A DNA stretch of 64,000 nucleotides from Leucoraja ocellata (taxonomy: Eukaryota), in NCBI GenBank assembly GCA_036785375.1, contig JAWMAR010000079.1:1116001-1180000 (forward strand), written 5' to 3'. The translations under genes were made by a program, and so were the position numbers. This document shows, in pieces, positions 18,201 to 61,049 of this stretch; positions within the stretch are counted from its first letter, which is position 1, and every line of letters starts with the position of its first letter. The notes beneath the pieces are model-generated. The model made no database searches. It was not told the origin of the DNA and saw nothing but the letters and a program-made list of their open reading frames with translations.

Positions 18201-21200
18201 CCCATTTTTCTTCGTCATCATTTGCTGCACCTGTTTTTTTCATTTCATTTAAGCAGTATATCGATTCTTCTGCACAAACCATTATTGCTAGTTTGTCATT
18301 TAGAGAGCTATTTATGTACTATCAAGAATGAATAACCTTTACGTTTCTGCCCATAATACTCCATTTCACACATTTGTCCACTTGAGCTTTTACCACTCTT
18401 CCGACCTCCCCATTTCCCAACCAGTTTTATCATCAGCAAATATGATTGCAATACACATTCTTATAATTGGTCAATAATATGACCTGTCAAGATCTGAGGC
18501 CCAGTATTGATCTGTGTGGCATTCTATTAGTGAAACATTCTGGGCTGACAGATCCATTGGTTCTAAATGTTTTGTTGTTTTAATAATCTCTACTGCAAAT
18601 CCATGTGCATGTACAGAACTATTGAAGTGGCATAAAAAAATTAAGAATTTGCTGTCAGAAGTTTAGAATTTTGCAAGCTACACTCTTTTCTGCAGTTTAC
18701 TGCAGATTGTATCCGGTCCCTTTCAGTAAGTTGGTTTCCTTCCTTGTTATTGATCTTGGCCAATGCAGTGATTGGGCCTCAAATGGTAGAAGAATGAAAG
18801 GTGAGAAGATATGTCAGCTCTTGTCCATCCACCGTAACTGGTTAAAGGACAACCCTGGGCTTTGTTCACCTTTGTTCTCTTCTCCTGATGAATGATCAGT
18901 ACAGAGAGAAGTGAAGAGACGTAAGGCACTTTTGAATTAGCCATTTGGGAATGTGTTGGTTTTGGGTCTGCATGCCTTCTTCTGCTCTTTGCTCATGAGC
19001 TGAGTTGGAGAAACACAATGGAAGTGGTAGATTTTAAATCTAACAGTTTAAGGCATAAGGGGAAAGGACAAGTGAATAGGGTTGGGTCTGAAGAAGGGTC
19101 TTGACCTGAAACCTCACCCATTCCTTCTCTCCAGAGATGCTGCCTGTCCAGCTGAGTTACTCCAGCATTTTGTGTCTATCTTCAGTGTAAACCAGCATCT
19201 GCAGTTCCTTCCTCCACGTGGTGTTGGGTCATAGGTTAGATAAGATTTTAAATGATTGAACTAGTTTGAAAGATTGAATGGCTTGTTGTTCCATTGGTTA
19301 AAGCCAGAGTGTAGCTTGCCATAGGTGTGTCTCTACAATTTATTGCTTGGCAGAAAAAAATAAAGTCAACTCATTCCCTGAATTGGGGATACATCCCAGA
19401 AAATAAATTGTATAACTGCATATAAATTATTCTGGGTAGATAACTATCGCTTGCTCCAGTGATGTCAAGTATATAAATTTACTATACATAATACAAAATA
19501 TAAATTTGATTTTTTAAGATAAATTGGGACAATATAAAAGGCATTATTTCTTTGCACACATGGAAAATCATTAAATAAAATCAGAATTCATGATAGAATA
19601 TTTTTATATAATTATTGTAAAATGAAATAATTGACACAACAGTACAATTGTCAATTTTGGGCAACTGCGTGCCATTCTGAAGACACACTCTTGGGGGGTG
19701 AATAATGCCTTGTCACGGAGCCTATCATAAGTAGGCAACAACAAAAAATGCATTATATTTTTGCTGGGTGCTGAAAGTGCCTATTTTAGTGCTAAATGTA
19801 CATTTATAGGATAGGTTCATGAGAGAAAATGCCATATATGTAATTCTTTATTATTTCACCTATTCAAACAGCTTAGATGTGTGGTATCGTCAAGAATGCA
19901 GGTATTGTAAAGACTAGTTAGAATTTTTAATTAAGACTGAAAAAAAATACTGTTTTTGGTGTTTGGAATGATAAAAATCCCCCCAAAAATTCTCTAGAAA
20001 ATTAATGTTCACAGCGATTCAGAATTAAGTGGTGCAAGTTCTGTGATAGAAGTAACTTTAAAATAGTATGAATATTAATGTTACATTCTGAATTTCATAT
20101 TTGTTGCAGTCAGTTGTGTCAGAAATATATTTTCAGCCACTGTTGATTAAAGTCCCTGAATTTAGGAGCAAAATAACTACAATTTTCTGTTCCTGACTAG
20201 TGCTTGCACATGCCCGCTGACATGCTCTATCTAATGCAAATAATGGAAGGTTGTTGCTGCCTATGGTGCAAAGTGCCAGCACCATCGGGGAGCGCAATAC
20301 AAATTACCTTGGGAAGCTGAATTAACTTGAGAAATGAGCTTGTGGAAAACTCTTTCATTAATGACCAGGGCATCACAGTCATGCCGCCGGTAGAGCTGCT
20401 GCCTTACAACGCCAGAGATACAGGTTTCATCCTCGCCTTGGGTCCCCTCTTTTTTTTCATGTTCTCCATATGACTGTGTTGGTTTTCACTGGTTTACTCC
20501 CACATCCCAAAGACATGCAGGATTGTAGGTTAGTTGGGCTCAGTAAAATTGGCCCAATGTGTAGGGAATTGATAAGAAAGTGGGATAGTGTAGAATTAGT
20601 GAGAATGGGTGACCAATGGGCTGCATGGACTTGGTGGGCTGAAGAAGGTTTCGACCTGAAACTTCACCCATCCCTTCTCTCCGGAGATGCTGCCTGTCCC
20701 GCTGAGTTACTCCAGCATTTTGTGTCCATCTTTGGTGGGCTGAAGGGCCAGTTTCCATGCTGTACCTCAAAACTAATTGGGGTTAAATTAAAGTATTTTA
20801 AAGTCTTTGGCTGTAAAAATAATGTCATTAACAAGTTGATGTGAAGCTGAAAATGTAAAACTATTTAGTGTGCATGCTTGAGGGAGTGACTGATCCTGAG
20901 GGACTGACGCTTCTCTAATGCAGTGTCATATTACCATTAATGTTGATAAATGATTCTGCCTCTGCATTTTTCCACTACTGCTGAGTTCTTGATTTCATTT
21001 TGACTTTCAAATTGAAATACTTTATTAACTGCTGTATTTTAGTCTGGTAAAAATCAGTGCAGTTTCTTCATATAAACTGGCTTAAATCGGTTGAAATTAA
21101 TTCTGTGGCTATAGTATCCTGTAGAGCAATCTTTAATATTGTGAATCATCAATGCCAGTTTACACAGTGAGAAGATAGTGAGCCGATATGTATTCAAATA

Positions 21201-27200: not shown

Positions 27201-30200
27201 ATCAAAGAAATTATTGTAGTGGTAGCTGTGTGGAATGAGCTTCCAGTGAAGGTGGTGGAGGCAGGTTTGTTTTTATCATTTAAAAATAAATTGGATAGTT
27301 ATATGGATGGGAAGGGAATGGAGGGTTATGGTCTGAGCGCAGGTATATGGGACTAGGGGAGATTATGTGTTTGGCACGGACTAGAAGGGTCGAGATGGCC
27401 TGTTTCCGTGCTGTAATTGTTATATGGCTATATGGTTATATGGTAATCAAATAATAATTGTTTGTTGTATCTTTATCAGTTATTCTGGGTAACCAGACCA
27501 CAATAGTGCAAGCTGATATAAATAAATCAACTGTACGCAAAATCCATAGTGGTGCATTGTTGAGGAAGGTTTGTGCAGAGTGGTTCAAGAGCCTAATGGT
27601 TAATGGGGCGAGGCTGATCTTGATCCTGGAGGTAACTGTTCTCAAATCTTTGTACCATCTTCCTAACGGCTGTAGTGAGATGAGAGTGCGGCCAGGGTGG
27701 TGAGGATTTTTTAATATTAGCTGCTGCCTCGATGTAGTGTTTCCTGTAGATCCCTTTGTGGGCAGGTCAATACCTGTGCTGGATGGGGCAATGTCCACTA
27801 CTTTCTATAGCCTTGTTTGTTTTTCAACATTTGAGTTACTGAACCAGGCCGGTATGCTTTCCACTATACACCTGTAGGAATTCAAGAGATTATTCGACAA
27901 CATGCCAAAGTCTACTGAAGAATTAGGTTTGCATCCATTGTTAAAATATCCGCATACTTGCAGATTCATAATGCTCATCTGTGGTGGGTGAGATGGGTTT
28001 TTTAAACACTGATATTTGGGGCATCCTGATTTGAGGAAGGTTTTGCTTGGATTTTTAAATAAACTACTGAACAACTTTCAGAAAGTTCCTTTGAAACGTT
28101 CTTGTACTCTTCAAGCACTCAGCCAGTTGACCCTAATACGCAACTTAAACGTGTCTGCGACAGGAGAATGTTTTGAGACCCAGGCCTAGTGAATTTCAAA
28201 ATCAAATTTTTGCTGTTTCATTTGAAAACTCTTCAACGTAAGGAGTAAACATTTGATGTGTCCCATCATCATCCTTCTTTCCTTGCCTTCACGTAGGTAT
28301 ATAGATTGTCTGCATGTTCCAAATGCCAATATACTAGGATTAAAAAATTGTCACAAATATTGTTAACCTTGTAAGTTTGCTAGAATTGTTAAGTGGATGA
28401 TTTGAGGGAAAATGCAAACATTTGTAGAAATATTTTACTTGCACAAATATTTTACTTGCACATGTTGGAAAATGAACATCTTGCAACCGTGAGTTGAAAA
28501 ATGAGCAGTAACTTCAATAACTGAATATTTAAATGAAATGTAAAATCATAGTGAGAAAATGTTGTGAATGGAATTAAAGCATTTTGCACCCGTTCAAAGG
28601 TAGCACAAACGGGTTACTTGCTCATTAATGAGAATAATGTTAATGGAATGCATTCCAAGTGAATGTTTGCCCTGGCAGTCTCTTCAATGCCTATGGCTAT
28701 ATAAAGGATAGAGCGAGATATTTGAGGAATAGGAAGGAGAAATGTCTATTGTAGCAGTGACATAATCCTCGTGTCCCTAACCAACAGAAAGAAAATTAAG
28801 AACCTGTTTTTCAGCAAGATTATTAAATAAGATAACGTGTCTGTTGCAATGAAAACTATTAGTTTTGATTTCTCATACTAATTTCCTGCATACAGTGCAA
28901 GGTGCAAATGGCGGTGCCTTTTTTCACTTTGCAGTAAAAATCTATTTGTTGGCTCACTATTTGAAAGTGTTTCTTCATTGAGACTAAAGAATTGCATTTA
29001 TGTTTGACATACAATTCATAATGTTTTATTTCAGAAAAACAAAGAAGAATAAACAGAAAGGTAAGCTTGCTTAAAACATGATTCAAATCTTCGCTATTGT
29101 ATAGAACCTTCGAACAATTGACAAATGTTATGGCTTGCATACAAGATCTTGAGTTAGTTTCTTCCTTGTGTCAGCTGTGATTAAGGTGGGACCAGATACT
29201 TGAGCAATAAAAGCCTGAGACTGTCACTCTTACAAATGGGATGCTAACCAGAAGTCCCCATCTTGCTTCTGTCTAGATGTAATACATCCCCATATAATTA
29301 TTTTGAATTGGGTCATTTATTTTACTCTCGGTGACGTTTGATCTCAGAAATATAATTATGCCATTACTAACTGATGCCTTTGCAATGATACATAGAGCAA
29401 CATCCCAGTCTTTTCAAAATTATTAGTGTCTTCTGTGTATGACACTAACTGTAACCTACAGTGCTTAATTGATTTAGCTGTAGCACTGCTGTCAATTATT
29501 GAAATGATAGAGAACATTATTTCATTGTCTAGTTTTTAATTTTGAGGAGCATCCATTAGTGCATTTAACTCTTTTCTCAGTTGCATAGTCTTTTGCCATT
29601 TTGTTAATTCATTGATCTGTATAATACTGGGATTAATAGCTGAATACAGGTCTGACGCAGGTGATGTTAAAACCAGTTTGACGTGATCATCATTATCACT
29701 GCCTAACTGATTTCTTCATTTGTGTGGCTGAAGCTGTATATGGAAAAGATTGGTGACTGATGAATTTCTCTTAAAGCTTTCAGAAGGGCAAACGATATTG
29801 GCCTTTTTCAATATGTGATAGAATTAATAGAGAAAAACAATTCTCTTTGGAGAATGGATAATGGAGGTCAGATTATGAACTGCAGAAGAACAATTGGGAG
29901 AAACGTTTTAATGTAATTGTTAGGATCCAGAGGACTATCAGAAAAGTTGCTAATTATAATAAAGCTGGTGCTCTGGGACCAAACATGACTTGGAGCCAAC
30001 AGAGGTGATCAGGGGATGCAAGGGATCACAGATGCTGGAATATTGAGTTAAAAAAAACATGTGGGAGGAACTTGGCAGATCAGGCAGCATTGGTGGTGGG
30101 AATGGACAGATGATGATTTGGGTAGGAGCTCTTCTTCAGACTAATGGAACGAGGGAAAAAGCTGGAAAAGAGATGGTGTGGGACAAAGTCTGGCAAGCGA

Positions 30201-33200
30201 TCGGTGGATAAAGGTGGGGGGGATTGATTGGTAGATGGGTGGAGTAAGTGACAGTCTACAGGTAAAAAGGGGGCAAAAGGCTGTCAGATAAGGAAAGAGG
30301 AGTGAAATGTGAAGCCAGATATGGATGAAAGGGGATGGTAGATGAGCGTACAGAGGAGGGAAAAAGAACAGGGTGGCTTGGATGGGGTGGGAAATGCTGG
30401 GATACGTTTGTGTGCGACAGGGTGGTGGAGAGGGAAAGAAGGTGGGTGGGTATTACATGAAATTAGGGAATTCAAAGTTCATACCATTGGGTTTAAGCTA
30501 CTCAAGCTGAATACAAGGTGCTGTTCCAAGTTTTCCTGTGACCTCACTCTGGCAATGGAGGAGGCTGAGGACCAAAAGGTCAACATGGGAATGAGAAGGG
30601 GAACAAAAATGGTTAACAACTGGGAGATCCAGCAAGCCTTGGTGGGCTAAGCGCAGGTGTTTGGTTCATGCTTAGTCTTGCCGATGTAACAGAAAGCACA
30701 TTGAGAACAATGGATGCAGAGGACAGGGTTTGAAGAGGTGCATGTGAACTTCTGCTTCAGCTGGAAAAATTGCAGGGTCCCAAGATAGAGGTGAGAGGTG
30801 GTGTAGGGACAAGTGTTGTCTTAGGGGAACGTAGCTAGTCCCACCAGGTCCGTGCCAACCAGTGATCCCGGCACATTAACACCATACTACATCCACTAGG
30901 GACAATTTTTACATTTACCAAGCCAATTAACCTACATACCTGTACGTCTTTGGAGTGTGGGAGGAAACCGAAGACCTTGGAGAAAACCCACGCAGGTCAC
31001 GGGGAGAACGTACAAACTCTCCAGACAACACCCGTAGTCGGGATCGAACCTGGGGCTCTGGCAGTTGGCAGAAAGGTCAGGGAATGATGTATTGGATGCA
31101 GAGATTGGTGGGGTGAAAGGTGAGAACCAAGACCAGGGTAACTCTCTCCTTGTCCTTCTGAAGGGAGGGGGAGTGAGGATAGAACTACGGGACATGGGTG
31201 CAGGCTACATCCGCAGCGGGGGGGGAGGGGTGGGAACGCATGTTTATCAAATGGCAACTTCTTCTGTAGATTTCCAAGATCCAATAAATATTTTGGGCTT
31301 GGGGTTTGGAGGATTTACAGAATGAAGTAAGCTGACAAATATTGGATTCCTTTCTTTGGAATAGTCTTCAAACTACCTAGCTGATGTCTACTCGTATTAA
31401 TCAAGCACATTCAAGATTGATTGCTGGTATTCTTCTTGGGATGTGTGTATTCCGATGGCTACAGCTTCTTGATTGGTTTGACCATTTTTCTAGGCTGTTT
31501 GTGCAGCACTTCATCAGTGGTTAACCAGGTGATTGTACACATTATACTTTGGCCTAAACCTTTGACAGTCCTGTCTGCAAACTGTCGATGTGTTGTAACT
31601 TTCAGATGGATTAGACAATTACATTACAATTTTTTTTTTTTTTTAATTAAAAACATTTTAAGTACCAATGCTGTAAATTGCCTGCAAGTAAGCTGTTTAA
31701 CTTTTTATTTTAGCCCCCACAGCTGGTGATGGAAGTAGCACCAGTGAAACTCCACAACCACCCAGGAAGAAAAGGGCAAGAGTGGACCCCACAATGGAAA
31801 GTGTATGTAGTTTGTTGGAATGTGACATAGTGACTGAATGTGTGCCAAATATCCAGTAGCAACGCCAGAATTTAAGCTGGCATAAATTTAATTCTTAACT
31901 AGTGTATGACCTAAAAATCCAAACATGACTGCATTATTGCCTCGTTGTGCTGATATATATCAGTGTTGCCCAGTGGAGATGGGTCATTTAATGTGGGGTG
32001 TTATCTATCAAACAGTACATTGCAGAAAGATATGCATTTTAAAAACTGGTACTAGCGCACATACTTTCAAAATGTTGCATTTTAATGTTGGTTATTTCAG
32101 TAGTCAATTGGCCCACTTCCCTCTGTCTAAGAGCTTTGTCACATTGAGATACCCGATCAATCAAGATGTAGAGCTCAATGTTCTGGACTCAACTTTGAGA
32201 TAACTTATCTCAACTGTAGTGGGAATTGGCAATGTGAAATAAGTGGGAGTCCATGTCACAATTTGAATCTAATTCAGGAGATGACGAGTCACGGATGGTT
32301 TTGGCTCCTGATCACTGCCCAAAGACAGTTGCAAGTAAGCATGCTTATTTGGATGTTGTGCCTTGGCAGGAGGAGAAAAGACAGGGTGTTATTTCCCCTT
32401 GTCTTATGGTTCATGATCACTATGGCATGGGTGGCATAGAGCCCTACAAAATGTTAATACTTTCATCAGTCAAGGGGACTGGTTCACCACATTCTCTGAG
32501 AATAAATAAACACAGTTTGACGGTCGTAGAGTATACATAAACCCGGCAACTTACAAACGCCAAACTTGTGTACACCCAGTATTTGGGAGACTGGGTTTGA
32601 TGGTGGGAACTCGTTTAGCAATTTCTACGTGAACTGTTTGGGTTGCGAATAGTTCCTGGCAACTCCTGCAGTAACCTGGGGCGGACCTGTTAATTCCAAA
32701 GCAACACCAACAAATATTAATTTGTGATTAATTTTGTTATGACTGTCATTTGTTTATTGAGCTATTTACGTATACGGGATATTTACTTCATCAGTTATTT
32801 ACTTATACAGGACATTAAATTGAAAGATCCATATGCTGCTCATGGTGCAGTGTCCTCCACATCTGGAGACCAAACTTAGATTGGGTGACAGTTTTGGGGA
32901 ATGCTTTTATTCGTTCTGCAGATGTGACCGTGAACCTCTGGTAGGCAATGGAAGAGGGATTGTGTGAGTAAAATGTTATTCAAGTGATGTTGGTATCACT
33001 GGCCAGACCAGCATTTCATTCTAATATTTTACAGCCCTGGAACTGAGAGGTTAGTTGTGAGTCTGGAGTCACATAGACTGGACCAGATAAGAATGCCAAG
33101 TGAACATGCATTTTACAATAATTCTGAAACTTTTTTGGATAAAGTTCAGATGTATTTATTTAATTTAAAATTCCCAGCTCCAATGAAAGTATGTAGATGT

Positions 33201-36200: not shown

Positions 36201-39200
36201 CAGAGATGAGATGGACAGTATGGGCCCTATCCTCTGATTCTTAATTCCAGGTACATTTCACTTGCAAGATGATATAAAAGTGCAACATGTTTGCAATTCC
36301 TTGACATTTTTTTAAATGTTCTATTAGTTAACACGTTTGAGGCATTGTTCGTAAACATTAGCCACTTTTTTTAAACATATTGTAAAACTGCTTTGAGTTT
36401 TGACCATTGTTACTACACTCTTTACATCGCGGAAAATCAACATTGCTGAGGTTGGATAAATAATAGATGTGATCGGTGAACTACAAATTTGTTTATATGA
36501 TTAGAATTTTAAATATGTTTGCAATTAATTGGTAGAGTAGATTGTTACTTTTAATAATTGAGAATGAATGTTGCAGGTTTGTATTGACCAACATTCATGT
36601 ATTTGTAATATGACTATACATCCTAACCAGCAATTATATGTCTTTAAAGCTGTTTCACTTGCCTGCTAAAAAGAATGTTGACACTGTTCTGGAAGAGTAT
36701 GCTAACTACAAAAAGTCACGTGGGAACACTGACAATAACAAGTGAGTGTATTTATGTTTGCTGTCTTGTATAACTTTAAAATACTGAGAAGCTAATACTG
36801 GAATTTTCATTGGGATCTCTAGAGAGGCTTGACCTTTCTCTGGAGCTCCCTTCCTCCTGGTTTTACTTGCCATGGTAAGGATAGCATTCTTGAAGATCGA
36901 AAATGTCTTTTGGCAACTTGAGATGCTCGAAAAAGACTGACCCATTAGGGTTGACAATCGGTGACCATTCCTTGAATCTGTTCCCCATCTCAACCTTGGA
37001 TGAATGGTTTTGCTTGAAAACAAAAATAAAATGGATGTTTATCTCTTTGTTTTTGAAAGAAACAAAAATGCTAGGAACTTTTAGCAGCCCAGAGAGCATC
37101 TGAGTGAGTGATGATAACATTTAATTTCAATGTTCTTTCATCAGAACTAAAATAAGTGTGTAGATATTATTACTGTCAAGATATCTGTGGATCACATTCT
37201 ATTGGTGTCACATAATGGAAGAAGGACCAAGTCTTAAATGCAAACATGGCTGTTCTTTTACTCTGGAGTTTGTTACTATACTAACCATATCCTTTGATTC
37301 TTCAATTAATCTATCTCTCTCTCTCTCAATTCCATTAATATCTCACACTCTGTCTCTTGAATTACTCACCCACTCACCCACAACCTTTCTCCAGAGCACT
37401 TGTTTTCTTGATCTCTGGTTCTACACACCAGAACTCTGCAATTTCCTTGTCAAACACATCAGAATTCTGTAGTTACCATAAGATAGCGATTGTTTGAGAG
37501 TCTGCACAGAACATTTCTGTATACTTCATGAAGACCAATGTTCTTAATTTCTCAGCCATTTCTTTATTTTCCCATATTGTTCTAAACTAAATCAGCTGCT
37601 GTTGGCTTTTATCTTTGTTTCATGCTTGACCATTCTCCTATTTGGATTTCCTTCACTTTATCAATGCTTTGTCCTCCCTCTACTGAATTCTTTGGAATAA
37701 AGGAACAGCTGCAACATTCTGATCAATTTTTTGGGAATTGTTGGCAAACAATATGGACTTGTATGGATTGGATTATTTTTAATATTGGAAAATTAGAAAA
37801 CCATTTGGCCAATTGACCCCTCCCATGTGCTCAACCTTTAATAATATTTTGGATAACTCAATCTTGGCTGCAGCACGACTTTCATATGACCCTTTGCTCT
37901 AGTTCAATTTGAATGTTTGTCAATCTCCATCTTGAATGTAATATAATGGAACTGCAGATGCTGGTTTATATGAAAGATAGACAGAAAATGCTGGAGTAAC
38001 TCAGCGGGTAAGGCTGCATCTCTGGAGAAAATGGATGTGATGTTTTGAGCTGGTACCCTTCTTCAGACTGATTGTAGTGGAGTGTGGGGGGGGAGACTGG
38101 ATACGAGAAAAAAACAGGACATATTTTAGTTAACTTCTACAAACCCCTCTCTTTCCTTTCTCCTTCTCCTTCTCCCCCCCCCCCCCCCCCCCACTAAAAG
38201 TCCATTAACTAGTTCTAAATTTCGCAATGATGTATCCCTCTTGGGCTCGCACCGTCTCTAGCCAACAATTAGCATAGCAGATGCCTGAGGTTATCTGTTG
38301 CTGGCCCCGATTTGTCATGTTTTTTTAAAACTTGCTTTCAGTTTCTCGCCCACCTCCCCACACTACAACACTACAATCAGTCAGAAGAAGGGTCCTGACC
38401 CAAAACATCATGAATCCATTTCCTTCAGAGATGCTGCCTGACCGGCAGAGCAACTCCAACTTGGATGTATTCCATTACTCCACCTCTGCTGTTCCTTGGG
38501 TTGGTGAATTCCGAGGTTCATGATCCCTCTGATAATAAATTCAGGAAAATATTGTCTCTCAATCTACCCGATAAAACTATCAAACTTCATCTTAGGGTTG
38601 CTCTGGTACCTTGATTATTTCCAATGAAAGAAACTGATTGCGGCGTTCTCCTGGTTGCTGAGTTGTGATTTTTCATTTTCAGGGAATATGCTGTTAATGA
38701 AGTAGTTGCAGGAATAAAGGAATACTTCAATGTGATGTTGGGGACTCAGCTGCTGTACAAATTTGAGCGTCCACAATATGCAGAGATCCTGGCAGATCAC
38801 CCTGATGCATCTATGGCACAGATTTACGGAGCACCACATCTCCTTCGATTGTTTGGCAAGTTTGATTAACGTCCTGAATTATTGTAGCTCTGCGCCGAGT
38901 CTTCAGAGTTTTGTTCCTTCATTCTGCAGAAGCTGGAGATGTTGGGGACAGTTGCAGCCCTCTGGAACCCAGTTCGATATTTCTCATTTGAAAGTAGGCA
39001 GCTCGTTCCACATACATACCACCCTCTGTGTGGAGAAAGTTGCCCTTGAGAAATGAGAAGTGAAATAAAATCAAAAACATCCGGTGCTAGAAACCTGTAG
39101 GCTGTGGGCCGAGGAGCTTTATTCTGCAGTTTCGTGACCCAAGTCACCAAACTACATGAAATTTTCACATATTGTGTAAAAATATTGATATAAATCACCC

Positions 39201-42200
39201 CTGAAACTCAATATGAAGAAAACTTGCACATTTTTATTAAATTAGAGCAAAACCGGAAAAATGTCGGGAATTTTTTAGTCCAATCAAAGCACGTTTAACA
39301 TTGAGTTGTCTGCCAGTTGGCCAATCACGCGCTTTGTTTCGGGCTAGCACACTAAATGGCTGAGGGGGCTTCACAGATGCCTGTTTTACTGGAGATTCCG
39401 ATTTGTTGTTCTGTGGAATAAATGTCGTGGAAACTTGCAGCAAGTTAATTGTATTTAGTGGGAAAAGCATTAAAAAAGGCTGAAGAAAGTGCTGCGAAGT
39501 GGATTAAAGTACAAGAAAGCCTTCAAAGTCCCTGCTGATTCCTGACATTTTTCCGGTTTTTCTCTAATTTAATAAAAATGTGCAAGTCTTCTTCATATAG
39601 AGTTTCGGGGTGATTTATATAAAAATGTTTACACAATATGTGAAAATTTCATGTAGTTTGGTGACTTGGGTCACAAAATCCTATTTCTAGACACATTTTT
39701 GATGCTCGGCCCACAGCCTACTGATGTAAAAATAGAAACAATCAACTTCATCCCATTTGCTTCTCGCTGGACCATTTAAGAGAAATTTGATTGCGTTCAC
39801 TTGATCAAATATGTGTGACGGAGTGAGTATCATTGTATTTTCCACGCTAAAAAATGTCCATTGTGCTGTTGCCAACGCTTTGATGTGTGAAGATAATAGC
39901 AGTAATAATAGCTCCTTTATCAGAGAAGGACGCACAAAGCAGAGCTGGCAGAAAACTGAAGGATGACTTGACCCCTTTTATATTACAAAAGGATTTGATC
40001 AGGTGGTTGCAGGGATATTTCAGTCTGAAGGCAAATCTAAATCAAGGGACTAAATATGTGGTTACTAAAAATCCAGTCGGAATTGAGGAGATTGCTAGTG
40101 CAGAGAATGTGGTGGAGCTTGCTGCCAGATGGAGTGAATGACAAGCATTTAGTTCAATATCTGAAAGAATTGGAGACACTGAGATGTTATTACTGAAGGA
40201 GAGTTGTGTGAAGCATGGGCAAACTGCTTTGATTAGCCCACTTCTGTTCTGTGGAATGAATGCTGTAACAATACTTTCTTCTAAAGTCCAGCTTCTCTCT
40301 AACAGTGCGAATAGGAGCAATGCTAGCGTACACACCTTTGGATGAGAAGAGTTTGGCCTTGCTGCTAAATTACTTGCACGATTTCTTAAAGTAAGTAACA
40401 TTTCAAAATACCTAAAGCCTTTAAAAATATACGCAAAATGCTGGAGTAACTCAGTGGAACAGGCAGCATCATTGGATAGAAGGAATGGGCGATGTTTCGG
40501 GTTGAGATCCTTCTTCAGACTTAAAACGTCACCCATTCCTACTATCCAGAGATGCTGCTTGTTCCGCTGAATTACTCCAGCATTTTGTGTTTAAGAAGGA
40601 ACTGCAGATTGCTGGAAAATCGAAGGTAGACAAATGCTGGAGAAACTCAGCAGATGAGGCAGCATCTATGGAGCGAAGGAAATAGGCAACGTTTTGGGTC
40701 TTCAGACAAGTCTTCAGGGTCTTGACCCGAAACGGTGCCAATTTTCTTTGCTCCATAGATGCTGCCTCACCCGCTGAGTTTCTCCAGCATTTTTGTCTAC
40801 CAGCATTTTGTGTCTATCTTCGGTGTAAACCAGCATCTGCATTTCTTTCCTACGCCTTAAAAAATACGGTGGATAATGGGGTGAATGTTCTTACAGCCTG
40901 GGCAACATATATAGGAAGTTGTGTGGAATGTCAGACTGTCAAACATTTAAAGTCTGGTCTGCATACCAGTGAAAATCAGTGTAAGGGAATAAATTCTGGG
41001 AAAATACTCGGGTCATCTGGAGAATGAACTGTTCTTACCTTGTAGTCTTTATTAGAAGTGGAAGATTGAAATTTTGAGCAAGTATAGAATTTAGCAAGGG
41101 ATTAAGGATTGGAAGTAAAGAATACACATACAATGTCAGATGAAGTGGTAGGTTGTTGGGATTAAGGGGAAACAAATGTCTTTTAAAAGTCATTGTGTCG
41201 ACTTCTATAATTTCCTCTGCAGCTCATTCCAGCTACGGGCCATCCTCTGAATGAAACAATTGCTCCTGACGTCCTTCTTAAATCTCCACCCTCTTGCCTT
41301 AAACTTCTGTCCTCTATTTTTACAATCCTCTACCCTGCAGAAAATACTGGTTGCTTACACTTTATTCATGCCCCTCCTGATACTGTACGCCTCAATAAAG
41401 TCACCCCCTGGGCCCCCATATTCGAAGAAAAAATGCCAGCCTATCTAACCTCTCCCCATAACCCATGTGTGCAAACCCAAGTAATATTCTGGGGCATCTC
41501 TTCTGACCCCTTCGACCTTAATGATATCTTGTAGCGGGCAACTGGAACTGCTCCCACCTCCTACACTTGCCCCCAGACGGAACATTGTCCATTGAACCTC
41601 AGTAGTGATGGGTCTTCCCCTTCCCCCTCTGTCAACCAGGTGAGAAGCATTAAGTTAATATCTCCCCCATCTTTTATGGCTCTACACACAGATGGCCATG
41701 TTGATCTTTAAGTGGATCTTCTATCCCAATCCCCTTTTTTACACTTAATATGCCTGCAGAATCTGTTAGGATTTACCTTTACATGCCAGCTCCATTTCAC
41801 GCCTTATATTTGCCCTCCTGTTTGCTGCCTTGAATGTGCAAAAATAGGGGGTCTTTCACAAATTTCCTTGCCATCCATATCTCTGGCTCAACAGCTTTTT
41901 GTGGTGTGGGTTGGAATAGCTGAGAGGTGGAGGATTTGGGGAGCATCCGACTTGCACAGAAATTGGAGGTGCAGTGTAAATGTGGGCTTCATCAGAGTCC
42001 ATGTCAGATTCAGATTCAACTTTCATTGTCAGTGTACAGTACAGAGACAACAAAGGCAAATATAGAGAAGGCAAATTGGGGTGTGACTAACCATCTTGGT
42101 AACTGAATTGTTATTCGTAACTCTATTTTCTTCAACCCCACGTCATTTTCAGGTACTTGGTGAAGAATGCTTCAAGTCTGTTCAGTCCAAGTGATTATGA

Positions 42201-45185: not shown

Positions 45186-47329
45186 ACAGGCCAAAAATCC
45201 AAATGCAACCGAAGATAGACACAAAATCAGTGTAACTCAGCGGGACAGACAGCATCTCTGAAGAGATGTGATGGGTGACGTTTCGGGTCAAGACCCTACT
45301 TCAGAAAATTGTCGCTTTGTTCCCAGATTGCTTTTATCCATTTTGTTTAGATATGTGTAAATGTCTTAACAAAATATGATTGAAAGCATGAGCCATTAAC
45401 ATTACCTCTTGCAATGGTAGGAAACCCCATACTGATTGAGGTGAAGTCCATTTGGGGGACATCTTGCATACTGTCAGCTTCCACAAATACCCCAACGCAA
45501 TAATGAGCAGAACTTCTTGGTGTTTTGATTATTTATTTCTGAGTCGGTGTAATTAAAAATAGGTTAGTCGTTTTATTTTATTTTTATCTTTAGAGAAATG
45601 AAAGAATATTTAAGTATGTCAGAGTTGTGTACCCTTTATGCAAAAAAAAGAGCATCTGGAAAATAGATATTTTACTTCGCTCAGCTGTTGTAACTCGTTC
45701 CACTGCAGGATCTGGTTATATTGTCCAGTCTGAGTCACACAGCCAGGAACCAGGCCCTGCAGCCCAATTTGTCAACCAAGATCCCCATCTATGCTAGCCC
45801 CATTTGGTGCGTTTGGCACAACTCCCATGCATGTACCTGCCCAAAGGTCTTTTATATGTTATTGTACCTGCCTCAACTACTTCCGCTGGCAGCTAAATAT
45901 ATCATGTCACATTAAGTATGTGAACTTGAGGACACGGTACAATTTCCAAGTTTGCTGGCAAAACAGTATGCTGTGCGGAGAACAGAAATAAGGTAGAATA
46001 GTCTTGTCTACTATTTAAGCTGTTCATAGCATGTTCTGATGTGAAAGTCAGCACAAAGATGACATGCAGTATGTCAGGTCCAATTGATCCGACAGCCGCA
46101 TGCTTTCAATGCAATTTTATTTTTCCAAGCTCTTTTTCCAGTGCTTTTCTGAACCCAAATTGCCTTCTCCATTCCCCCAAGAAGAACATTCCAGACCCCA
46201 ACCACTTACCACCAAAAGCAATTTTGCCTTGATAAATTTTTAGTGGTTTTGCCAATCACTTTCATGGTATGTTCACGCTTCTTGGCCATTCCACTAACAG
46301 GAAGTGTTTCCATACACTCGCTCCAGATCGTTCTGGATTTTCAATACCTTTACTGGATCAATTTTCAACGTCCCTTGTTCCAAGAATCTCTAGCGTATCC
46401 AAATAATAAAAACTCCTAATCCCTACGATCATTCTAACAAATCTCTTCTGCACCTTCTCCCTCAGGTCTTCCCTAAAGTATAGCACCAAAAACTGGACTA
46501 TAGACTATGACTGTAGACTACTAGCTGTCTATAATGTTTCTCGGGCTTCCTTGCTCTTGTACTATATGCATCAATTTATAAAGCCTGAAATCTTGTTATT
46601 TTAACTTCTGTCTCAACCTGACCTGCCACTTTCAACAATTTACGCAAATAAATCGCAAAATTTTGGTTTTTGTACCTCTTGAAATTCTTTTTGTTTTTGT
46701 ACCTCTCCTCATTCTTCCTCTTGAAATGTGACACCTGACATTCCTGTGTTGGAAGGAATGTACCCGACATGTCCTCTGCTGTAGCCTCTCCTGTGATTCG
46801 GACTTGCTTTGAGCAACAACAGGTAAGACTGCTCTGCCTGAGATCCAGTTTCACCACTCATTGCCGTACCCACCTACAGAATGCCGGATCATCTTTATAT
46901 TATGGTCTTGCTCTGTGCTTAGTATTATTTTGCCATTTTGTGCCACAATCAGTCAATTTACACATATGTAAACTGTCAGGTTTGCTTTTAATTTTCACTA
47001 TGGTTTGGTGTGACAGAATAAGTCATGTCTGATTCCATTACATTTTGTTTTGGAAAATGCATTGTGTGATTGTGTCCATTTTTCCAGAGACCTTACCTGA
47101 TATTTGGAAAGAGGTTATATACTTCAGTGTGAATCTGGCACATGGTGGTTGAATCAGTCAGACTTTCTATTGTGTGAGATGCCATTTCCTCAGGATCGAT
47201 TAATCGGTCCCCGCTTCCTCTGTGCCGTAGGAAAAAGCACCAAAGAGACTTGGGATAAAGTGCTGGGGGTTAAGATAATAAAATCAAGAAACAAATTGAT
47301 AAGGTGCCACATTTGAGGCTGCAAAGGAA

Positions 47330-48437: not shown

Positions 48438-49077
48438 AAATCTTTTATAAAGTAGCAAGTTATCAAAATCTTGCAGACTGCTAACTAATTTTATCAGTGA
48501 TCTTAGTTCACTGGGCTGTCAATTGTTGACTCATTGATTCTTAATTGGCTAATTGATTGAACCCTGAAAACAGAAGAGTAGAAGTGTTCATCAGCCTGAG
48601 CGACTGTTGCCATCGTGGTCCCAAATGGGACATTGTTTTATTAATATCTTCAGCTGAGAAACAAACTTGTTTTAGAAATAAAGCAGAGCTCAACCAGGCA
48701 AACTCCAATGAATGGACACAAAGCTGGAGTAACTCAGTGGGTCAGACATCATCTCTGGAGGAAAGGAGTTGGTGACATTTCGGCATGATTGTGTTGTTCC
48801 CTCGGCACCCATGGCACCTGAGCAGAAGCCAGTCCCCTTCATCCCAACGGACTGACGACAGGTAACTTCCTGCGCGGTGGAGAGCAAACTGGATCAATTG
48901 GTCATTTTATTACACATCTAATCCTTTGTAAATCTATTGGGGATGGAAAAGCTTGAGATGCTGTAGGATATACAGGGGGTGTAGGTAATGTGATGTATAT
49001 CCTGGAGGAATCCCAGCAATGAAGTAGAGCTTTAACGAGACACATCAGCCTGATGCTGTCTCTTCATCAGACATAAG

Positions 49078-49256
49078 AGAGACACAAAATAATGGAGTAA
49101 CTCAGGGGGATAGGCAGCATCTCTGGAGAGAAGGAATGGATGACGTTTCTGAAACGCCACCCATTCCCTTCTCTCCAGGGATGCTTGGCCCGCTGAGTTA
49201 CTCACAGTATCTTGTGTCTATCTGGTTTAAACCAGCATCTGCAGTTCCTTCCTACA
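49078..49256. repeat. Fold-back of Penelope-derived terminal repeat
   Basis: AGACACAA..GAGTAACTCAG..GGAGAGAAGGAATGGATGACGTTTC mirrored by GAAACGCCACCCATTCCCTTCTCTCC..CTGAGTTACTC..TTGTGTCT. Confidence 0.8.
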
Positions 49257-52200
49257 CTCTTCATCACACCTTATCTATGACACTGCACGCTACCTTCTCA
49301 CAAGAAGTAGCAAGTGTCCTGTAACATTTTGCAAACCCCGAAGTGATGTAAATCGTAACCCCAGGTGGTAATGTGTAAGCCAGCTTTCTCCACATCTAGG
49401 TGCTCTTCTGCAGAACATCCTCTTCACCTTGTCAGTTGTCAGTGGGAAAAGATGCCTCGGGCATTAACTTAAACATGCAGGGGGCAGCAGATCACACAGT
49501 AAGTACTCGGACCTGCCCTGAACACTGCAAATGCGATCATAGCATGTATCATTGGAGCGCAGGCACGAGCAATTGCACTGTTGAATGTGATATTAACCCT
49601 AAAACAGGATGATCTCAACCGATGGTGTTAAGAATCTTTAAATTAATACCGCACACTTATTTTTCCCTAAAGGTAGTTAATTTGGTCTGGGCTGGTATCT
49701 GCTGGGAGTGCAACAGAGCAAAGGGGGACGTGATTGAAACATAGATACTGAGATGTCTGAGAGGGTGGGTGCAGGGAGAATGTTTCCTCTTGTGGAACCC
49801 AGAAATAACAGGTCACTATTTAAAAACCAAGTTCTCCCATTTAAGGTAAAGATGGGATGATTTATTTTTGGGGATCATTAGCCTTTGAAACTTTTTTTAA
49901 TTTTTTTTAAAAAGGTAATAATGCAGAATCTTTGATTAAAGTTAGAGATTTTTGATAAATAAGTGGGTGAAAGGTTAGATGGCAAATGTGGAATTGAGAT
50001 TACAATCAGATTGGCTGCGCTCTTATTAAATGACAGAACAGGTTGAACAGTGTGGAGAAAGTCTGAGGCCTGGAGTAGATCAGTCATAAACATATTGAGC
50101 AGCAAGTCGGCTATGAGAGTGTGCAGACATTGGGAGGCAGGAGATTGAGTTCCATTGCTATCCATGTACCTGTCCAAATGTCTTTTAAACATACGGTAAT
50201 TGTACTCGCCTGTACCACGTCCTCTGACAGTTTGTTCAATATATCCTCCACCCACTGAGTGAAAACCATCCCTCGGGTCCTCTTAAATCTTTCCTCTCTC
50301 AGCTTATATCAACACCTGACACTTCAAAAAAGAAGGTACACAAGAACAAGTACACAACCCTTCAAGAAGGGTTTCGGCCCAAAACGTTGCCTATTTCCTT
50401 CGCTCCATAGATGCTGCTGCACCCGCTGAGGAAGCAGTGCTGGCATATTCAAACAGTGTTGAGAAGGTAGCTGGATAAGCTGAAAGGAATGAATTTGCAG
50501 GGCATTTGGGAGAGGGCAGGATGTGGGACTAGTGGTATTGCTGTTGTGTGAGCTGGTATGGACAGAGGGGGGTGGGGGCTTCCTTCCCCACGGGAACGAT
50601 TTGGCGATTTAATGGCCCCCTAATTTGAGATTCTCCAACAGGGGAAACAGAGTTTCATCATTTATCCAATAAATTCTACTCAGAAATTTATATATTTTAA
50701 CGAGATCATCTCCCAAACTCTCAAAGGATCAGTCTTGTAGTATCTATTCGATCATTTGGATTGTGTTCACAAATGTAAGTAACATGTAGATCTATCAACA
50801 ACACATCCTTTATTGAAGAGACAAAAGACTGCAGATGCTGGAATCTGAAAAATAAAATGCTGGAGAAACTCAGCAGGTCAGGCAACATGTGTAGAGGGAA
50901 ATGGACAGATGATGTTTCAGTCTGAGAAGGCTGCTGACCATTTGTCCATTTCATCCACAAATGCTGCCCGACCTACTAAATTCCCCTTCCCTTTAGTGAA
51001 AGTAGTTAGCACTCATTGAACACCAGTGGCTGGCCCAGCAATGTTGCAAACAATTCATACCACATTGTGCATGCAGTTCTTGAAATTGTATTTGTGTTCA
51101 TTTATAAAACACTTGAATTTTGAAACCCAGTAAACCTTCATTGCACCACCCCTAAACCAATAATATGCTTTAAAATTGAGATCCAAATTAAAAATAAAAA
51201 ATAAAAACAGAAGTAGGAAATGAAACGGGTTTTAACTGCATTGGAAAGAAAGAAGGAACAGGGAGAATAGAAGGAATGGGTGTCGGGGAGAGAGAAAATA
51301 AGGGAGAATATGTTTCTCTGCTTTTCTGGTAATTTCAGATTTAGATCATCTATTCCTGCTCCTTCGGTCACACCTTCTCTCTGACAGCATCATAAACACT
51401 TCTGTCACCTAGGCACCACTATCCTCTAGCTGTCAAAGACCTTTGCGTTTATTCCCTCTGTCCCTCCATTCCCATTTATTCCCTCTGTCTATTCCCTCCT
51501 TCGTCTGCAGCTAACATTTGCTCCATATCTACTGTAACGTTAGATGGAATGTCAGTTTCTCTGTAACAATAACACTAAAAAGCTGTTACATTATATTCTG
51601 CTTTTCTCTTTACACTACCTACTGCGTGTGGCTCGATTATGCTTATAGTAAGATTTAATTGGATAGCATACACAAGTTGAAAATAATAAACCAAAAGTAA
51701 CAGCAAGGTAATTGAGTTGAAATGTAACAATTTCTCCTGGTGCTGCCTGACTGGTAACTTTTTATAAGATTTTCTGGCTTTATTTCAGATATCCAGCATT
51801 GACAATATTTTGTTTTTGAAAGCGAGAATTATGATTGGCCATAGAATTATTACTTCAATTAACAGTTTAAGAGACAGATCCCGTCTTCATTAAACATGGA
51901 GAGCTTATTTACCAGGCAAAAAGGGAAACGTTTTAATCACACACTAATTACATGCAATTTGTGTAAGCAAATTAGCATATTAAAGTCATATAATTATCTG
52001 ATTGTAAATAATACTGAATCTTGAGAATGTAGGCTATTAGAAACGATGTTAATTGAGGATGCTGATTGGAAATAAATTGCGAGTCTAATTGATTATGGGA
52101 ACTGTCGTATAATTCATTGTGGCAAGCACAGATAAGCTGTTTGGCATCAGCCACACATCAGCAAGTAGGGAATGGTGATCAATTTATTTCCTCTGTGCCT

Positions 52201-52263
52201 CCTCCAGGTTTTAATTTGAATGCATCATTTACATATCACCGTACACAATTCCTGCTTACAGTG

Positions 52264-52770
52264 CAGGAAGGAACTGCAAATACTGGTTTACACCGAAGGT
52301 AGACACTACATGCTGGAGTAACTCAGCGGGACAGGCAGCATCTCTGGAGAGAAGGAATGGGCGACGTTTCAGGTCCAGACGCTTCTTCAGAATGAAGGTC
52401 ACGGGAAAGGGTTATGGACGATGATGTAGAGCGATATAGAACAACGAATTAAAGATATGCAAAAAGTAACAATGATAAAGGGCACAGGCCGTGGTTAGCT
52501 GTTGGGTGAAAATGAGATGCTAGTGCGACTTGGGTGAGGGAGGGATGGTGAGAGAGGGGATGCCGGAGTTACTTTAGAGAAGTCAATGTTCATGCCTGTT
52601 CATATGTTGAGGGCTGTAAGCTGCTCAAGCGAAATATGAGACGCTGTTCCTCCAATTTGCGTTTAGCCTCACTCCGACAATGGAGTAGACCTAGGACAGA
52701 AAGGTCTGTGGGAATGGGAAGGAGATTCTGAATTAAAGTGTTCAACAACCGGGAGATCAGGTAGGGAGAT
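52264..52770 (-). mobile_element. Penelope-like element 3' end (GIY-YIG C-terminus plus terminal repeat with hammerhead-like core)
   Basis: Minus strand PDLPVVEHFNS...SHRPFCPR / EAKRKLEEQRLIFRLSSLQP; CTGAAGAAGCGTCTGGACCTGAAACGTC at ~52363-52390. Confidence 0.75.
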
Positions 52771-53635: not shown

Positions 53636-55059
53636 ACTGTTAGCGTCTCAATCACTTTGCAGGGAGTGCTCATTGATGACGGCTGTAAAATGCACTGATG
53701 ATGCTACTTTGTGCTACAAAATTATCATTTAGTGATACATTTATATTTTCTAAATCCATTTATATCGGGTTTTAAATGTTTTATAAATTCTCATCTGGAT
53801 TACTTTGAGCTTCCACATTCCACCTTCCGCCTGTGCCTGTAGTGTCAAATCTCCAAGTTCAGCAACTCACTTCTTAATCCTCTCTACACTCCTTCCTTAA
53901 AATTTACATCTTTAAACATATTTTCGGTCACCTCCTCTAATATCTCTCTCTCTCGGCTCCGTTTCAAGTTTTGCTTAAAATAGTTTCTTCAAAGTACCTT
54001 GAAATGTTTTTTAATGTTGTAAATGAGGGAAACTGTTCCTGCCCCGTGTTTCCTTCAGAAGAACATTACCTTGGAGAGATTACTCCACAGATAAACCCGA
54101 TACCCTGGCTTGGAGAGTGAACTATGAGGATAGATTTGATCAACGTAGCTTGTGCTCTTCTAATCCCTTTATCCCATTTAGATGCTGAAAACGTTCAAAG
54201 GATTTGAGAAGGTAGAAGTAGGAAAACTGATTGGGAAACTGTAATAACTTAAAAGTACCATTCAGAAGAGGCATGAGGTAGCAACTTTTCATTCAAATGT
54301 CTGAAGAAGGGTCTCGATCCAAAACGTCACATATCCATGTTCCTCATGGATGCTGCCTGATCTACTGAGTAACTCTATCACTTTGTGTCTTGGATTGTAT
54401 TATGTTGAGTACCATCAAAACACTGCACTCTTTCCTTTTCTTTTTTTTGTGTGCTGCCGATTGCACGGGTATGATTTGATTTTACTCATGTATGGTATGA
54501 TCTATCTAGATAGCAGGCAAAACAAAACCTTTCACTGTCTCTCAGTTCAGGTGACAATAATAAAAGGTGTGGAGGAAAGGCACGTAATGGGGTTCTAACG
54601 TACCAGGCTGATTATCCTGCTCCTGACCTAACTGAGAGCTTTAGCATCTTGGCACAAGCAGGGCACAAAATGCTGGAGTAACTCAGCAGGACAGGCAGCA
54701 TTTCTGGAGAGAAGGTATGGGTGAGATTCTGGGTCGAAACCAGAGTCTGAAGAAGGGTCTCGACCCAAAACGTCACCAATGCCTACAGAAGCGGAAAAAC
54801 TATCTTTAAATTCACTCACTTCTTCCACAATGGAAATTGGTCAGTGTGGATAAGGGTAAATTATTTTATTTTGGTTCTGCTTAATGGTCCTTCACCTCTT
54901 CTTTCCCCAGTTCATGGTGAATATACAAGATTGACTTTCTGTTCTCACCCTGAAGTTAAATCATGAATCGACCCTCCTACCAAATTCCTCCCCTCCATCA
55001 CCTGCACCTGGTCTGATTCTTTTTCCCCTTCTGCTATCTAGATTTCCTTGGATAGTCAA

Positions 55060-58472: not shown

Positions 58473-59013
58473 GGTAGGTGATGGATGAGATCTTTATTCA
58501 TCCGAGTATCAGAATAATTCAAGGTATGCCTAAACGCTCGTCATCTCACTTTAAACTTGGAGCATTGATGCGTGTAGAGTTAAGGAAGTGTGCAAACGAA
58601 AATGTAAAACACACCATGAGGTGAATTTCTCTTCATCTGTTAGCTGCCATTTATTCATTTCGTTAAACATCTGAATTGATTATTGACAATTCAATCAAAT
58701 AATTTGGGCTTGACTGCCAGAAGTGAATGCATACAGTATATTTCAGTGAACTTACAAAGAGAAAATGCTGAACTGTCTGCAGTCAAGCATCACCTGTCGG
58801 AAAAACACTGAATGAATGCATGGATGCACAGTCATTCCCTCTTTCTCCACCATTTCCTCTCTCTGCTACTTAAAACCCCTTTGCACTTCTGATGCAGGGT
58901 CATTCACCTGGAATATTCACTCTGTTCCTCTCTCTACACACGCTGCCTGACCGGTTCAACATTTTCAGTTCATGTTTCAGATACCCATCTGAATTTCTTA
59001 GGAAATTCCATCT

Positions 59014-59225
59014 GTAGGAAGTAACTGCAGATGCTGGTTTAAACTGATTATAGACACAAAATGCTGGAGTAATTCAGCGGGACAGGCAGCATCTCTGGAG
59101 AGAAGGAATTGGTGACGTCTTGGGTCGAGACCCTTCTTCAGTCTGAAGAAACGTCACCCAGTGCCACTCCTTCTCTCTAGATATGCTGCCTGTCCCGCTG
59201 AGTTACTCCAGTGTTTTCTTGTATC
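59014..59225. repeat. Fold-back of Penelope-derived terminal repeat, followed by an HE1/V-SINE fragment (~59255-59435)
   Basis: CTGGAGTAATTCAGCGGGACAGGCAGCAT mirrored by ATGCTGCCTGTCCCGCTGAGTTACTCCAG around TTCTTCAGTCTGAAGAA. Confidence 0.8.
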
Positions 59226-61049
59226 TACTGGCACGAGCTCTTGCATATCTAAAAGGCAGCTCGTAGAGCATCAGGGACTTGGGTTCAACCCTGTCCATCG
59301 TTGCAGTTTGTGTGGAGTTTGCACGTTCTTCCTGTGGCCTCGTGGGTTTCCCCGAAGTGCTCCAGTTTCCTCCCACATCCAAAAGACAGGTGGATTGGTT
59401 GGTTAATTGGCCACTATAAATTGCTCCTAGTATGTCGGCGACGGATGGAGTGCCAATCATGCAGGCAACTTTGTCCTGGGTAGTGTCGAGCTTGTTGAGA
59501 GTTGTTGGAACTGCACTCGTCCTGGCCAGTGATTAAGATTCAGTCACACTCCTCACATTTCAATGGGGGAAAGGCATTGGGATAAGGTGAGAGACTTGTC
59601 AAATAATATTCCACCTTTGAATTACTGTTGCAACCACAGTATTTATGTGGCTGGTCCAGTTGAGTTTTTTGCTAATGGTGATCCCAAGAATGTAGTCAAT
59701 GGGAAACTTGCCACTTGTAATGGTATTGAATGTCAAGGTTCGGCTCATCGACTCCATGGTTGAAGATGGCAATTTTGGGGCATTTCCACGATCAACACAT
59801 GACTTGCCACTCCCTTTCCTGAACGTTGTCTTGAGCTGACGCCCAACACGATTGCATTTAGGTAGTATTATCATTGTAGTAAAAAGTCCAACAAGACATT
59901 GAAATTAAGACACACAAGGGAAAGAGGTGGATTTTAAAGAACACCTCGGAGGACCATAGAGTGATGGTCTGGATGTTTTGACATTTGGTTCTGAATTTCT
60001 GTTGAAACATTTACATCAAGAACCAGAAATTATGCTTGTTGGAACTAATTTATTTTACCATTAGGCACCTGTAACATATCACCACAGGAGCTGAACAGGA
60101 AACAAACTTAAGAAATGTACTTCATGTCACCAGCAGTCATGTCCCATCCTTTGTGATGTGAGCTAGGAACAGGACTCGTGCCTGAACTTGTCTGAATTGG
60201 GAATTATTCTAACTACAACAATATTAACCCTGTTGAAGTTTGTTTTCATTGTCAGGAAAGAAACGACATGCAAAATTAATCGGGCTGTGAATCAAGAAGG
60301 GAGTCAGTTCCCAAAGGCTGAGATGTTGCTTCGATCTGACACTATGTCTGATGCCAGGGAGCTAATCACCTGGCTTCAGTCATCCAAATTTCCAGATTTT
60401 TTAAAATTCGCAAATTGACCACGGAATTAATTAATTTTCTTCCCATCTTTCCCAGGAGAGGTTGCGGCTGTAGATGAGAGGGGAATATCTGTATCTCAAG
60501 CTACTGAATAGGACAGATTAATTAGACCAGAGAGATTTTCTCTCACTGTCAATCTGATTTCCGCAGGGAAGTGGGCGCTGGAGATTGTTGCTGAGAAATT
60601 AATTACTGATCAGTAGCACCAAGGGCACTGTGAGGTTGTGTCAGTACTTTATAGTCTGCCTCTGAAATTCAATATGTTGGCTTCAGTGACTTTCAGAAGC
60701 AGAGTGGGATGGTGCTGACAGATTGCAGAACTGGTTCGGAGGCAGAGGCTGGGCTGATGTTCTGTGCATGTCTCAGCACGTCTCGCAGTGATGCTGAGTG
60801 AGCGATAAATATTGGCTGGCATTGTGGGGTCTCTCCTGCTCTTCTATGACATGCTCATTGAGATACAAACAGGTCCTTGCCTCATTAAGTCCTCACTGTC
60901 TAACACACACCAATTTACAATAATAACATTCTCCACATTTTTTCATCTTCCCACATTACAGGTAATTTATACCACTAATTAACCTGGCAAACTGCATGTC
61001 TTTGCAATGCAAGAAGAAACCAGAGTACACAAGGGAAACCCAAATGGTC

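Follow-up and report, generated by a model that had tools for sequence, protein, structure and literature searches.

Minimal hammerhead motifs in the pseudo-LTR of skate Penelope-like elements, and short dispersed copies that probably derive from uncut RNA

The closest described relatives of the repeat studied here are the minimal hammerhead ribozymes (min-HHRs) located in the pseudo-LTRs (pLTRs) of metazoan Penelope-like elements (PLEs), including Xena, Poseidon and Neptune of fishes (Cervera and De la Pena 2014, PMC4209133). In vitro, cleavage by these minimal hammerheads is reported to be weak and to require dimers or trimers (PMC4209133). For PAc, a Poseidon element of the green anole, Frangieh et al. 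(2024, PMC11167929) report that reverse transcription (RT) starts internally at both tail ends, that hammerhead mutants leave insertion unaffected, that cleavage requires protein, and that no reads end at the cut site. Non-LTR retrozymes, which have been reported in one chondrichthyan, are a further related group, and among Xenopus retrozyme dimers one of nine was cleaved (Li, Clavereau and Pollet 2026, 10.64898/2026.07.22.740005). Hammerheads of this kind have been described since 2014, and what the skate Leucoraja ocellata adds is a correction to stem I, the scale of the family, and a pile-up of 5' ends. The literature search, from which subscription papers were mostly absent, returned no title or abstract opening on PLE hammerheads of sharks or rays or on such a pile-up, and the main text of the Squalomix preprint (10.1101/2025.06.08.657570) yields no whole-word match to Penelope, PLE, ribozyme or SINE.

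Several PLE subfamilies carry the repeat as their hammerhead-bearing pLTR. In the window, i.e. the whole stretch of 64,000 nucleotides that was analysed, self-comparison gives a repeat depth of up to 27 across segments of 100-250 bp. Family segments were called by alignment to natural reference copies (6 of 35 representatives, chimeric or of low complexity, were dropped from the reference set), giving 39 aligned segments with 17 gapless cores. The repeat family is real, and all six copies that the original prediction had quoted as examples were found in their places. The segments have no strand bias (21 plus, 18 minus). None of the 17 cores has the catalytic core, GAAA, stem II, the palindrome and the cleavage triplet all whole, and the window has no match to the minimal-hammerhead descriptor, in agreement with the earlier remark that no copy here is intact. 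Positions within the repeat are counted from C3 of CUGANGA as position 0, with the predicted hammerhead cut after +27. The features discussed below are as follows (TSD, target-site duplication).

19087..19222, plus strand: pLTR mini-insertion, from the 5' edge of the core through a tail of ~35 nt (alignment, TSD)
19088..19115, plus strand: core of the 19087 copy, CUGAAGA, with the predicted cut after 19115
19081..19088, no strand: left TSD, 8 bp, GTTGGGTC, the source of the 5' strand of the earlier stem I
19223..19230, no strand: right TSD, 8 bp, GTTGGGTC
20639..20751, plus strand: short copy starting at position 0 (self-comparison, alignment)
30019..30142, minus strand: old, diverged copy with native upstream tract (self-comparison, alignment)
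30459..30817, minus strand: broken GIY-YIG C-terminal remnant, upstream of the 30019..30142 copy (tblastn E 4e-21)
37935..38119, minus strand: copy in an intron of an MRG-domain gene, antisense to it, with an MRG exon on either side
38377..38462, plus strand: sense copy in the same MRG intron, core broken (U4 and G12 changed)
40423..40853, no strand: two adjacent head-to-head inverted pairs
45208..45305, minus strand: short copy starting at -1, A9 changed
49056..49258, no strand: head-to-head inverted pair, joined within the core
52260..52411, minus strand: copy with native upstream tract, stem II broken
52611..52767, minus strand: broken GIY-YIG C-terminal remnant, upstream of the 52260..52411 copy (tblastn E 4e-11)
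54299..54390, plus strand: diverged short copy starting at -2, G12 lost
54661..54784, no strand: head-to-head inverted pair, plus-arm core at 54747 without G12
59006..59226, no strand: head-to-head inverted pair centred on a TCAG-N-CTGA palindrome
61014..61264, no strand: head-to-head inverted pair

The core at 19088..19115 has GAAA, a G.U closing pair in stem II and a non-palindromic ACCU. Adjacency to GIY-YIG remnants, as previously proposed for several copies, holds for two of them (cores at 52390 and 30139); three further remnants (4798-4935, 12010-12105 and 23537-23656) have no core directly downstream. The MRG-domain exons lie on the plus strand at ~33821-33940 and 38690-38938, in a gene which we take, from its exon sequence, to be MORF4L1/MRG15; of the sense copies formerly assigned to its introns one stands (38377-38462, with its broken core), the other copy in the intron being antisense. 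The window also contains a tRNA-Lys(CTT) gene (3950-4022, plus strand, Rfam 65 bits) and a second dispersed family, with fragments of 300-600 bp at 13384-14003, 17393-18010, 35877-36185, 44912-45189 and 47886-48438, which are probably LINE 3' ends.

The proposal of a very large family is borne out genome-wide. The 3.44 Gb assembly contains 65,434 exact matches to a 32-nt core pattern and 0 to the reversed control; by comparison, ~4,000 motifs were reported for coelacanth and 9,000 for Xenopus (PMC4209133), against at least 65,434 exact cores here, the counting methods being different. The assembly has duplicated contigs, so these copy counts are somewhat inflated; the window locus itself is present twice (G000:C79 and C612, ~98% identity), either as unmerged haplotypes or as a duplication. 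An unbiased sample of eight 100-kb blocks (799,200 bases in total) holds 13 exact cores, 148 cores within four mismatches and 343 family matches, together with 20 descriptor matches versus 0 in each of five shuffles of the same bases. Extrapolation from these 799 kb suggests, very roughly and with the duplicated contigs included, some 600,000 cores within four mismatches.

Among the 148 cores of the unbiased sample, which were selected by pattern, the layout put forward originally, CTGAAGA-A-GGGT[CTCG]ACCC-GAAA-CG-TC, is the commonest form, and 97% carry the extra A at +7 before helix II. The G10.1-C11.1 pair is present in 87 of 97 copies; in the palindromic 15.1-16.1 segment the A-T pair is present in 92 of 97 and the C-G pair in 72 of 97, the remainder being mostly CpG decay. 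The CUGANGA, GAAA and NUH core of min-HHRs is thus found in the family in a minimal type I layout with palindromic ACGU, as had been proposed. The likeness to the PLE min-HHRs (PMC4209133) extends to the core, the extra nucleotide between 9 and 10.1, the G10.1-C11.1 pair, the palindromic 15.2-16.2, the pLTR position and the occurrence mostly as single dispersed copies. An alternative, which we consider extremely improbable, is that a SINE-like repeat with no relation to hammerheads resembles one by chance. Rfam hammerhead families have no match in the window (E up to 5) or in four intact loci (E up to 10), covariation is absent and structure prediction gives a fold other than the hammerhead, all of which would suit a chance resemblance. 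By contrast, the motif agrees with the published min-HHR traits in all its catalytic letters, in having an extra base ahead of stem II, in the G10.1-C11.1 pair and in the palindrome; the shuffles give no descriptor matches, and a Penelope-like element carries the motif in its pLTR.

The Penelope-like origin suggested earlier holds, in that the core sits in the pLTR of an element encoding RT and GIY-YIG domains. In long copies the order is the GIY-YIG stop, a pyrimidine-rich tract of ~115-230 nt, YCAG-T and the core, followed by ~65 nt, an optional tail of ~35 nt and then the ATG of the next ORF; young cores lie ~115 nt past the stop of a GIY-YIG-type ORF. Partial-tandem junctions at three loci (L102, L114/L115 and L116) run from the GIY-YIG end through tract, core and tail to the next ORF, whose ATG is ~160 nt after the core, and the partial tandems, inverted pLTRs and tail of 30-40 nt are traits of EN+ PLEs. 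Two ORF segments, of 763 and 759 aa, match RVT_1 at 30-32 bits, above the cut-off, while their C-terminal GIY-YIG matches, at 19.7 and 16.1 bits, are below the cut-off of 22.6. Homologues of the element ORF share PF00078, PF28514, PF26215 and PF01541, and among named proteins the nearest, at 62-69% identity, belong to sharks and rays. A CX4CXXC linker precedes GIY-YIG (CNHKKCNTC in the translation of locus L033), and a CX2-5CxxC linker in this place is described as a trait of Neptune and Nematis (PMC8557442), so that, judged from the linker motif, the element appears to be of Neptune/Nematis type. As in PAc (PMC11167929), the hammerhead is near the start of the ORF. The clade is a different one in that a linker zinc finger is present here, and the ATG is ~160 nt downstream of the core, whereas in PAc it is reported at stem II (PMC11167929).

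Two further observations concern this ORF. At loci L102, L103, L106, L110 and L114 its ATG, at ~+160, overlaps a strong donor-like site, AAG-GTATGC, such that the hammerhead unit is flanked like an exon, and the reading frame is open from just past the TGA of the core into the ORF. Locus L084 has, at 3428-4011, a 27-bp tandem repeat in the N-terminal part of the PLE ORF, the copy number of which varies among elements; L084 was rejected as a complete pLTR-ORF-pLTR element, its upstream pair being a separate TSD-bounded insertion of another subfamily.

With respect to stem I, the 4-bp GGGU/ACCC helix of the original prediction is largely refuted as the consensus. Upstream of the 65,434 exact cores, CAGT is found 38,300 times and GGGT 2,039 times (3.1%); upstream of the 148 cores of the unbiased sample the counts are 53 and 4. 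The native 5' side of the core is a pyrimidine tract plus CAGT, not GGGT, and helix I is therefore just 2 bp, as it is in 19 of the 20 descriptor matches. In 97 native-context copies, chosen by pyrimidine content only, C, A and G occupy -4, -3 and -2 in ~88, 86 and 85 cases, respectively, and YCAG is shared across otherwise dissimilar upstream tracts. Across 34 distinct natural copies, both inner pairs of stem I are present throughout and the two outer ones in 1 and 0 copies; 97.8% of stem II is paired. The covariation of stems I and II that was anticipated did not appear: the 34 copies contain 0 two-sided changes (score 0.139 versus 0.140 shuffled) and only one-sided ones (U-A/U.G and G-C/G.U), in a test of limited power because its rows were picked for upstream AGT and a near-consensus core. 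In alignment A1, AGT is invariant owing to this row selection and was excluded as evidence. Between the two main subfamilies, both helices show A-to-G changes at positions facing U, which is weak evidence of compatibility with a hammerhead structure.

The GGGT at 19083 falls inside the target-site duplication GTTGGGTC (19081-19088 and 19223-19230). The supposedly compensatory ATGT/ACAT pairing at 54297 belongs to a copy in which the family alignment begins only at -2, with 77% identity to the best reference and with G12 lost, and is therefore coincidental; it is host flank plus one substitution and not covariation. Helix I is 4-8 bp in the 25 GGGT copies examined, of which 8 derive GGGT from an inverted arm, 9 have a TSD and 8 have no TSD, while several repeat the element's own GAAGGGT. 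In a check for enrichment of long helix I by inversion, 81 exact cores were preceded by AATRGGT, at ~2x a rough chance estimate; these would have a long helix I and are candidates for accidentally completed hammerheads.

The 2,039 exact cores with upstream GGGT, the 81 with AATRGGT and the 4-8 bp of helix I in the examined copies are what can be said for a rival reading, in which the family consensus is a complete hammerhead with a covarying 4-bp GGGU/ACCC stem I and intact dispersed copies cleave host transcripts. We regard this reading as very unlikely, since GGGT precedes such a small share of exact cores, the examined cases have the mixed origins given above, the outer pairs hardly ever form, two-sided changes are absent, and the strands are balanced in the window.

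Compared with the described PLE min-HHRs (PMC4209133), helix I is thus 2 bp here versus 4-5 bp, helix II is 4 bp here versus 7-8 bp in the families of S. mansoni, and the skate family is uniform in sequence and without covariation. The resemblance to Penelope of D. virilis is closer in these respects, that element being described as having a 2-bp helix I, a 5' end abutting an acceptor-type AG and low sequence variation; the helix II bulge and the 2-nt helix III insertion of D. virilis are both absent from the skate motif (PMC4209133). By most defining features, the motif can be assigned to the minimal hammerheads of Penelope-like elements, of the type with a 2-bp helix I.

The ends of the copies bear on how they arose. 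The 5' ends were taken from 249 matches of the unbiased sample reaching +85 and starting at or before +55: 97 lie at -6..+1, 50 further upstream and 102 at +2..+55. By contrast with the pile-up at the 5' edge, the bin around the cut site, +26..+30, has 8 starts versus 9.4 expected of the 102 under uniform truncation (p 0.73). The earlier description of the family as ribozyme-tipped is right as to position, although it is upstream of the core, rather than at the cut site, that the copies begin. The sequence next to the 97 starts at -6..+1 is host flank in 53 cases, an inverted arm in 39 and a native-like tract in 5. Simulated uniform truncation gave 78 starts at -6..+1 versus 30 at +26..+30; the simulation recovered 18 of 24 cut-site starts and miscalled 33 of 187 longer copies into the -6..+1 bin, an inflation that is too small for the observed peak and that would appear as pyrimidine-rich flanks.

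Many copies are TSD-bounded mini-insertions of 95 or 130 bp, beginning at -6 to +1 against a TSD or an inverted arm and ending at ~+93 or ~+130. In a sample enriched for exact cores and including a few duplicated loci, TSDs of at least 8 nt are present in 39 of 115 host-flanked copies versus 12 of 457 mismatched pairs; the 3' ends of the 39 TSD-bounded copies are at +85..99 in 25 cases and at +120..139 in 13. The two preferred 3' ends, delimiting a tail of 30-40 nt, are shared with PAc, and the internal RT starts reported for PAc match the tail ends seen here (PMC11167929), the evidence being genomic in the skate and biochemical for PAc.

The reading we prefer, to which we assign a probability of roughly 0.72, is that the repeat is a PLE pLTR whose short copies were likely reverse-transcribed from RNA uncut by the hammerhead and are likely inert. 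Reverse transcription by the element's own enzyme would start internally at the two tail ends, ~+93 or +130, as in PAc, run back through an intact ribozyme and stop near -2, where the RNA may begin, so giving the mini-copies. Because sequence on either side of the cut site is retained in the copies, which have no pile-up there, the templates were probably uncut, as is reported for the RNA template of PAc (PMC11167929). The absence of starts at the cut site speaks only for the inserted templates being uncut, and cut RNA may be degraded. The ribozyme itself would work only as a dimer, via the ACGU palindrome, and probably only with the help of protein; if it has a role, this would be in the transcript of the parent element rather than in the dispersed copies. 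Stalling of RT on the folded ribozyme was rejected as the cause of the fixed 5' ends, since it would place them near +30.

The fixed 5' end can be accounted for in more than one way without altering the identity of the element. The explanation we favour, at a little under even odds, is an RNA start at YCAGT, an initiator-like sequence immediately 5' of the core; such a start would also account for the 2-bp helix I. The likeness of YCAGT is to the general initiator consensus. An Inr-like TCACT is described in rotifer pLTRs (PMC3846280). The base before AGT, looked at for a cap-derived G in the exact-core-enriched sample, is G in 11, A in 8, T in 2 and C in 21 copies. A downstream promoter element at ACGT was rejected, its spacing from a start at -3 being ~3 nt off the canonical one. 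The site has just five of the eight letters of the RGACGTGY motif (PMC2377424).

A second, doubtful explanation requires no transcription start at YCAGT and has the cDNA snap back at the TCAG-T-CTGA palindrome, the hairpin then priming the second strand, such that opening of the tip would give mini-copies and extension would give head-to-head pairs. Consistent with such a process, the palindrome centre (-1) is in the middle of the pile-up, several inverted pairs are centred exactly on the palindrome, and the neighbours among the 343 family matches comprise 66 head-to-head pairs versus 13 same-strand and 6 tail-to-tail ones; self-priming has also been inferred from palindromes at pLTR junctions (PMC3846280). 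By contrast, the stem would have merely 3 bp, with a loop of 3 nt, most inverted junctions are asymmetric with one arm from -3/-2, and A at -1 is unenriched in host-flanked copies (11 of 24 non-T versus ~10 expected from the composition of the flank).

Thirdly, YCAG-T may be an intron acceptor, with splicing lengthening helix I and so activating the hammerhead in the parent transcript, a possibility we consider unlikely. Preceded by a pyrimidine tract, YCAG-T suits a 3' splice site as well as it does a start site, the preference for CAG at -4..-2 in native-context copies is as expected of an acceptor, and the intron of D. virilis Penelope is reported to end exactly there (PMC4209133, PMC2377424); that intron has been shown (PMC2377424), its counterpart in the skate being a candidate. 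Against splicing, only 1 of 458 upstream GT/GC sites (6 long copies, up to 900 nt upstream) gives a helix I of at least 5 bp, and a splice completing helix I was not found. Nor was a recurrent precise splice seen when 76 genomic junctions, all lying no more than 60 nt from the GIY-YIG end, were inspected by eye, and a junction with the donor-like ATG site has 0 genomic matches (one subfamily, exact match). The absence of spliced DNA copies is weak evidence, because PLEs keep introns.

As for the inertness of the dispersed copies in the preferred reading, the core columns are 0.69-0.97 conserved, not above the unanchored columns 28-47, and G12 is changed to A in 20 of 106 copies. When natural copies are folded in silico, the hammerhead is outcompeted (z-scores near 0) by a purine/pyrimidine helix or, where copies form inverted pairs, by a long hairpin; the bare active dimer is also predicted to be less stable than competing folds. 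Since the core decays like adjacent columns and competing folds are predicted, most dispersed copies are likely inert. The clustering of insertion ends at the ribozyme's 5' edge, instead of at its cut site, lends support from a natural genome to the insertion of uncut RNA seen in vitro, with YCAG-T as a sharp landmark, whether as start site, snap-back point or splice acceptor.

The repeat resembles the non-LTR retrozymes (10.64898/2026.07.22.740005), which are described as non-coding derivatives of pLTRs that carry type I hammerheads and are probably mobilised by PLE proteins. Retrozymes, however, are head-to-tail tandem arrays, whereas the copies here are solo or head-to-head (13 same-strand versus 66), and the repeat is not a tandem retrozyme. 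More tentatively, the 95 and 130 bp units may be a self-contained, SINE-like class of Penelope derivatives, although we think this improbable on balance. The YCAGT initiator would then give rise to an RNA opening with the hammerhead as its first 31 bases, with RT start sites at the unit's own 3' end, and the strong-stop-type product could be transcribed and mobilised again. If so, several hundred thousand junctions would record bypass of the hammerhead during retrotransposition, genome-wide, and such bypass, if real, bears directly on the role of PLE hammerheads. Elsewhere in the assembly, three exact cores on the minus strand of G000:C1 (8664502, 8668487 and 8672472) are spaced by 3,985 bases, and likely belong to a tandem array of whole elements, a possible source of dimers.
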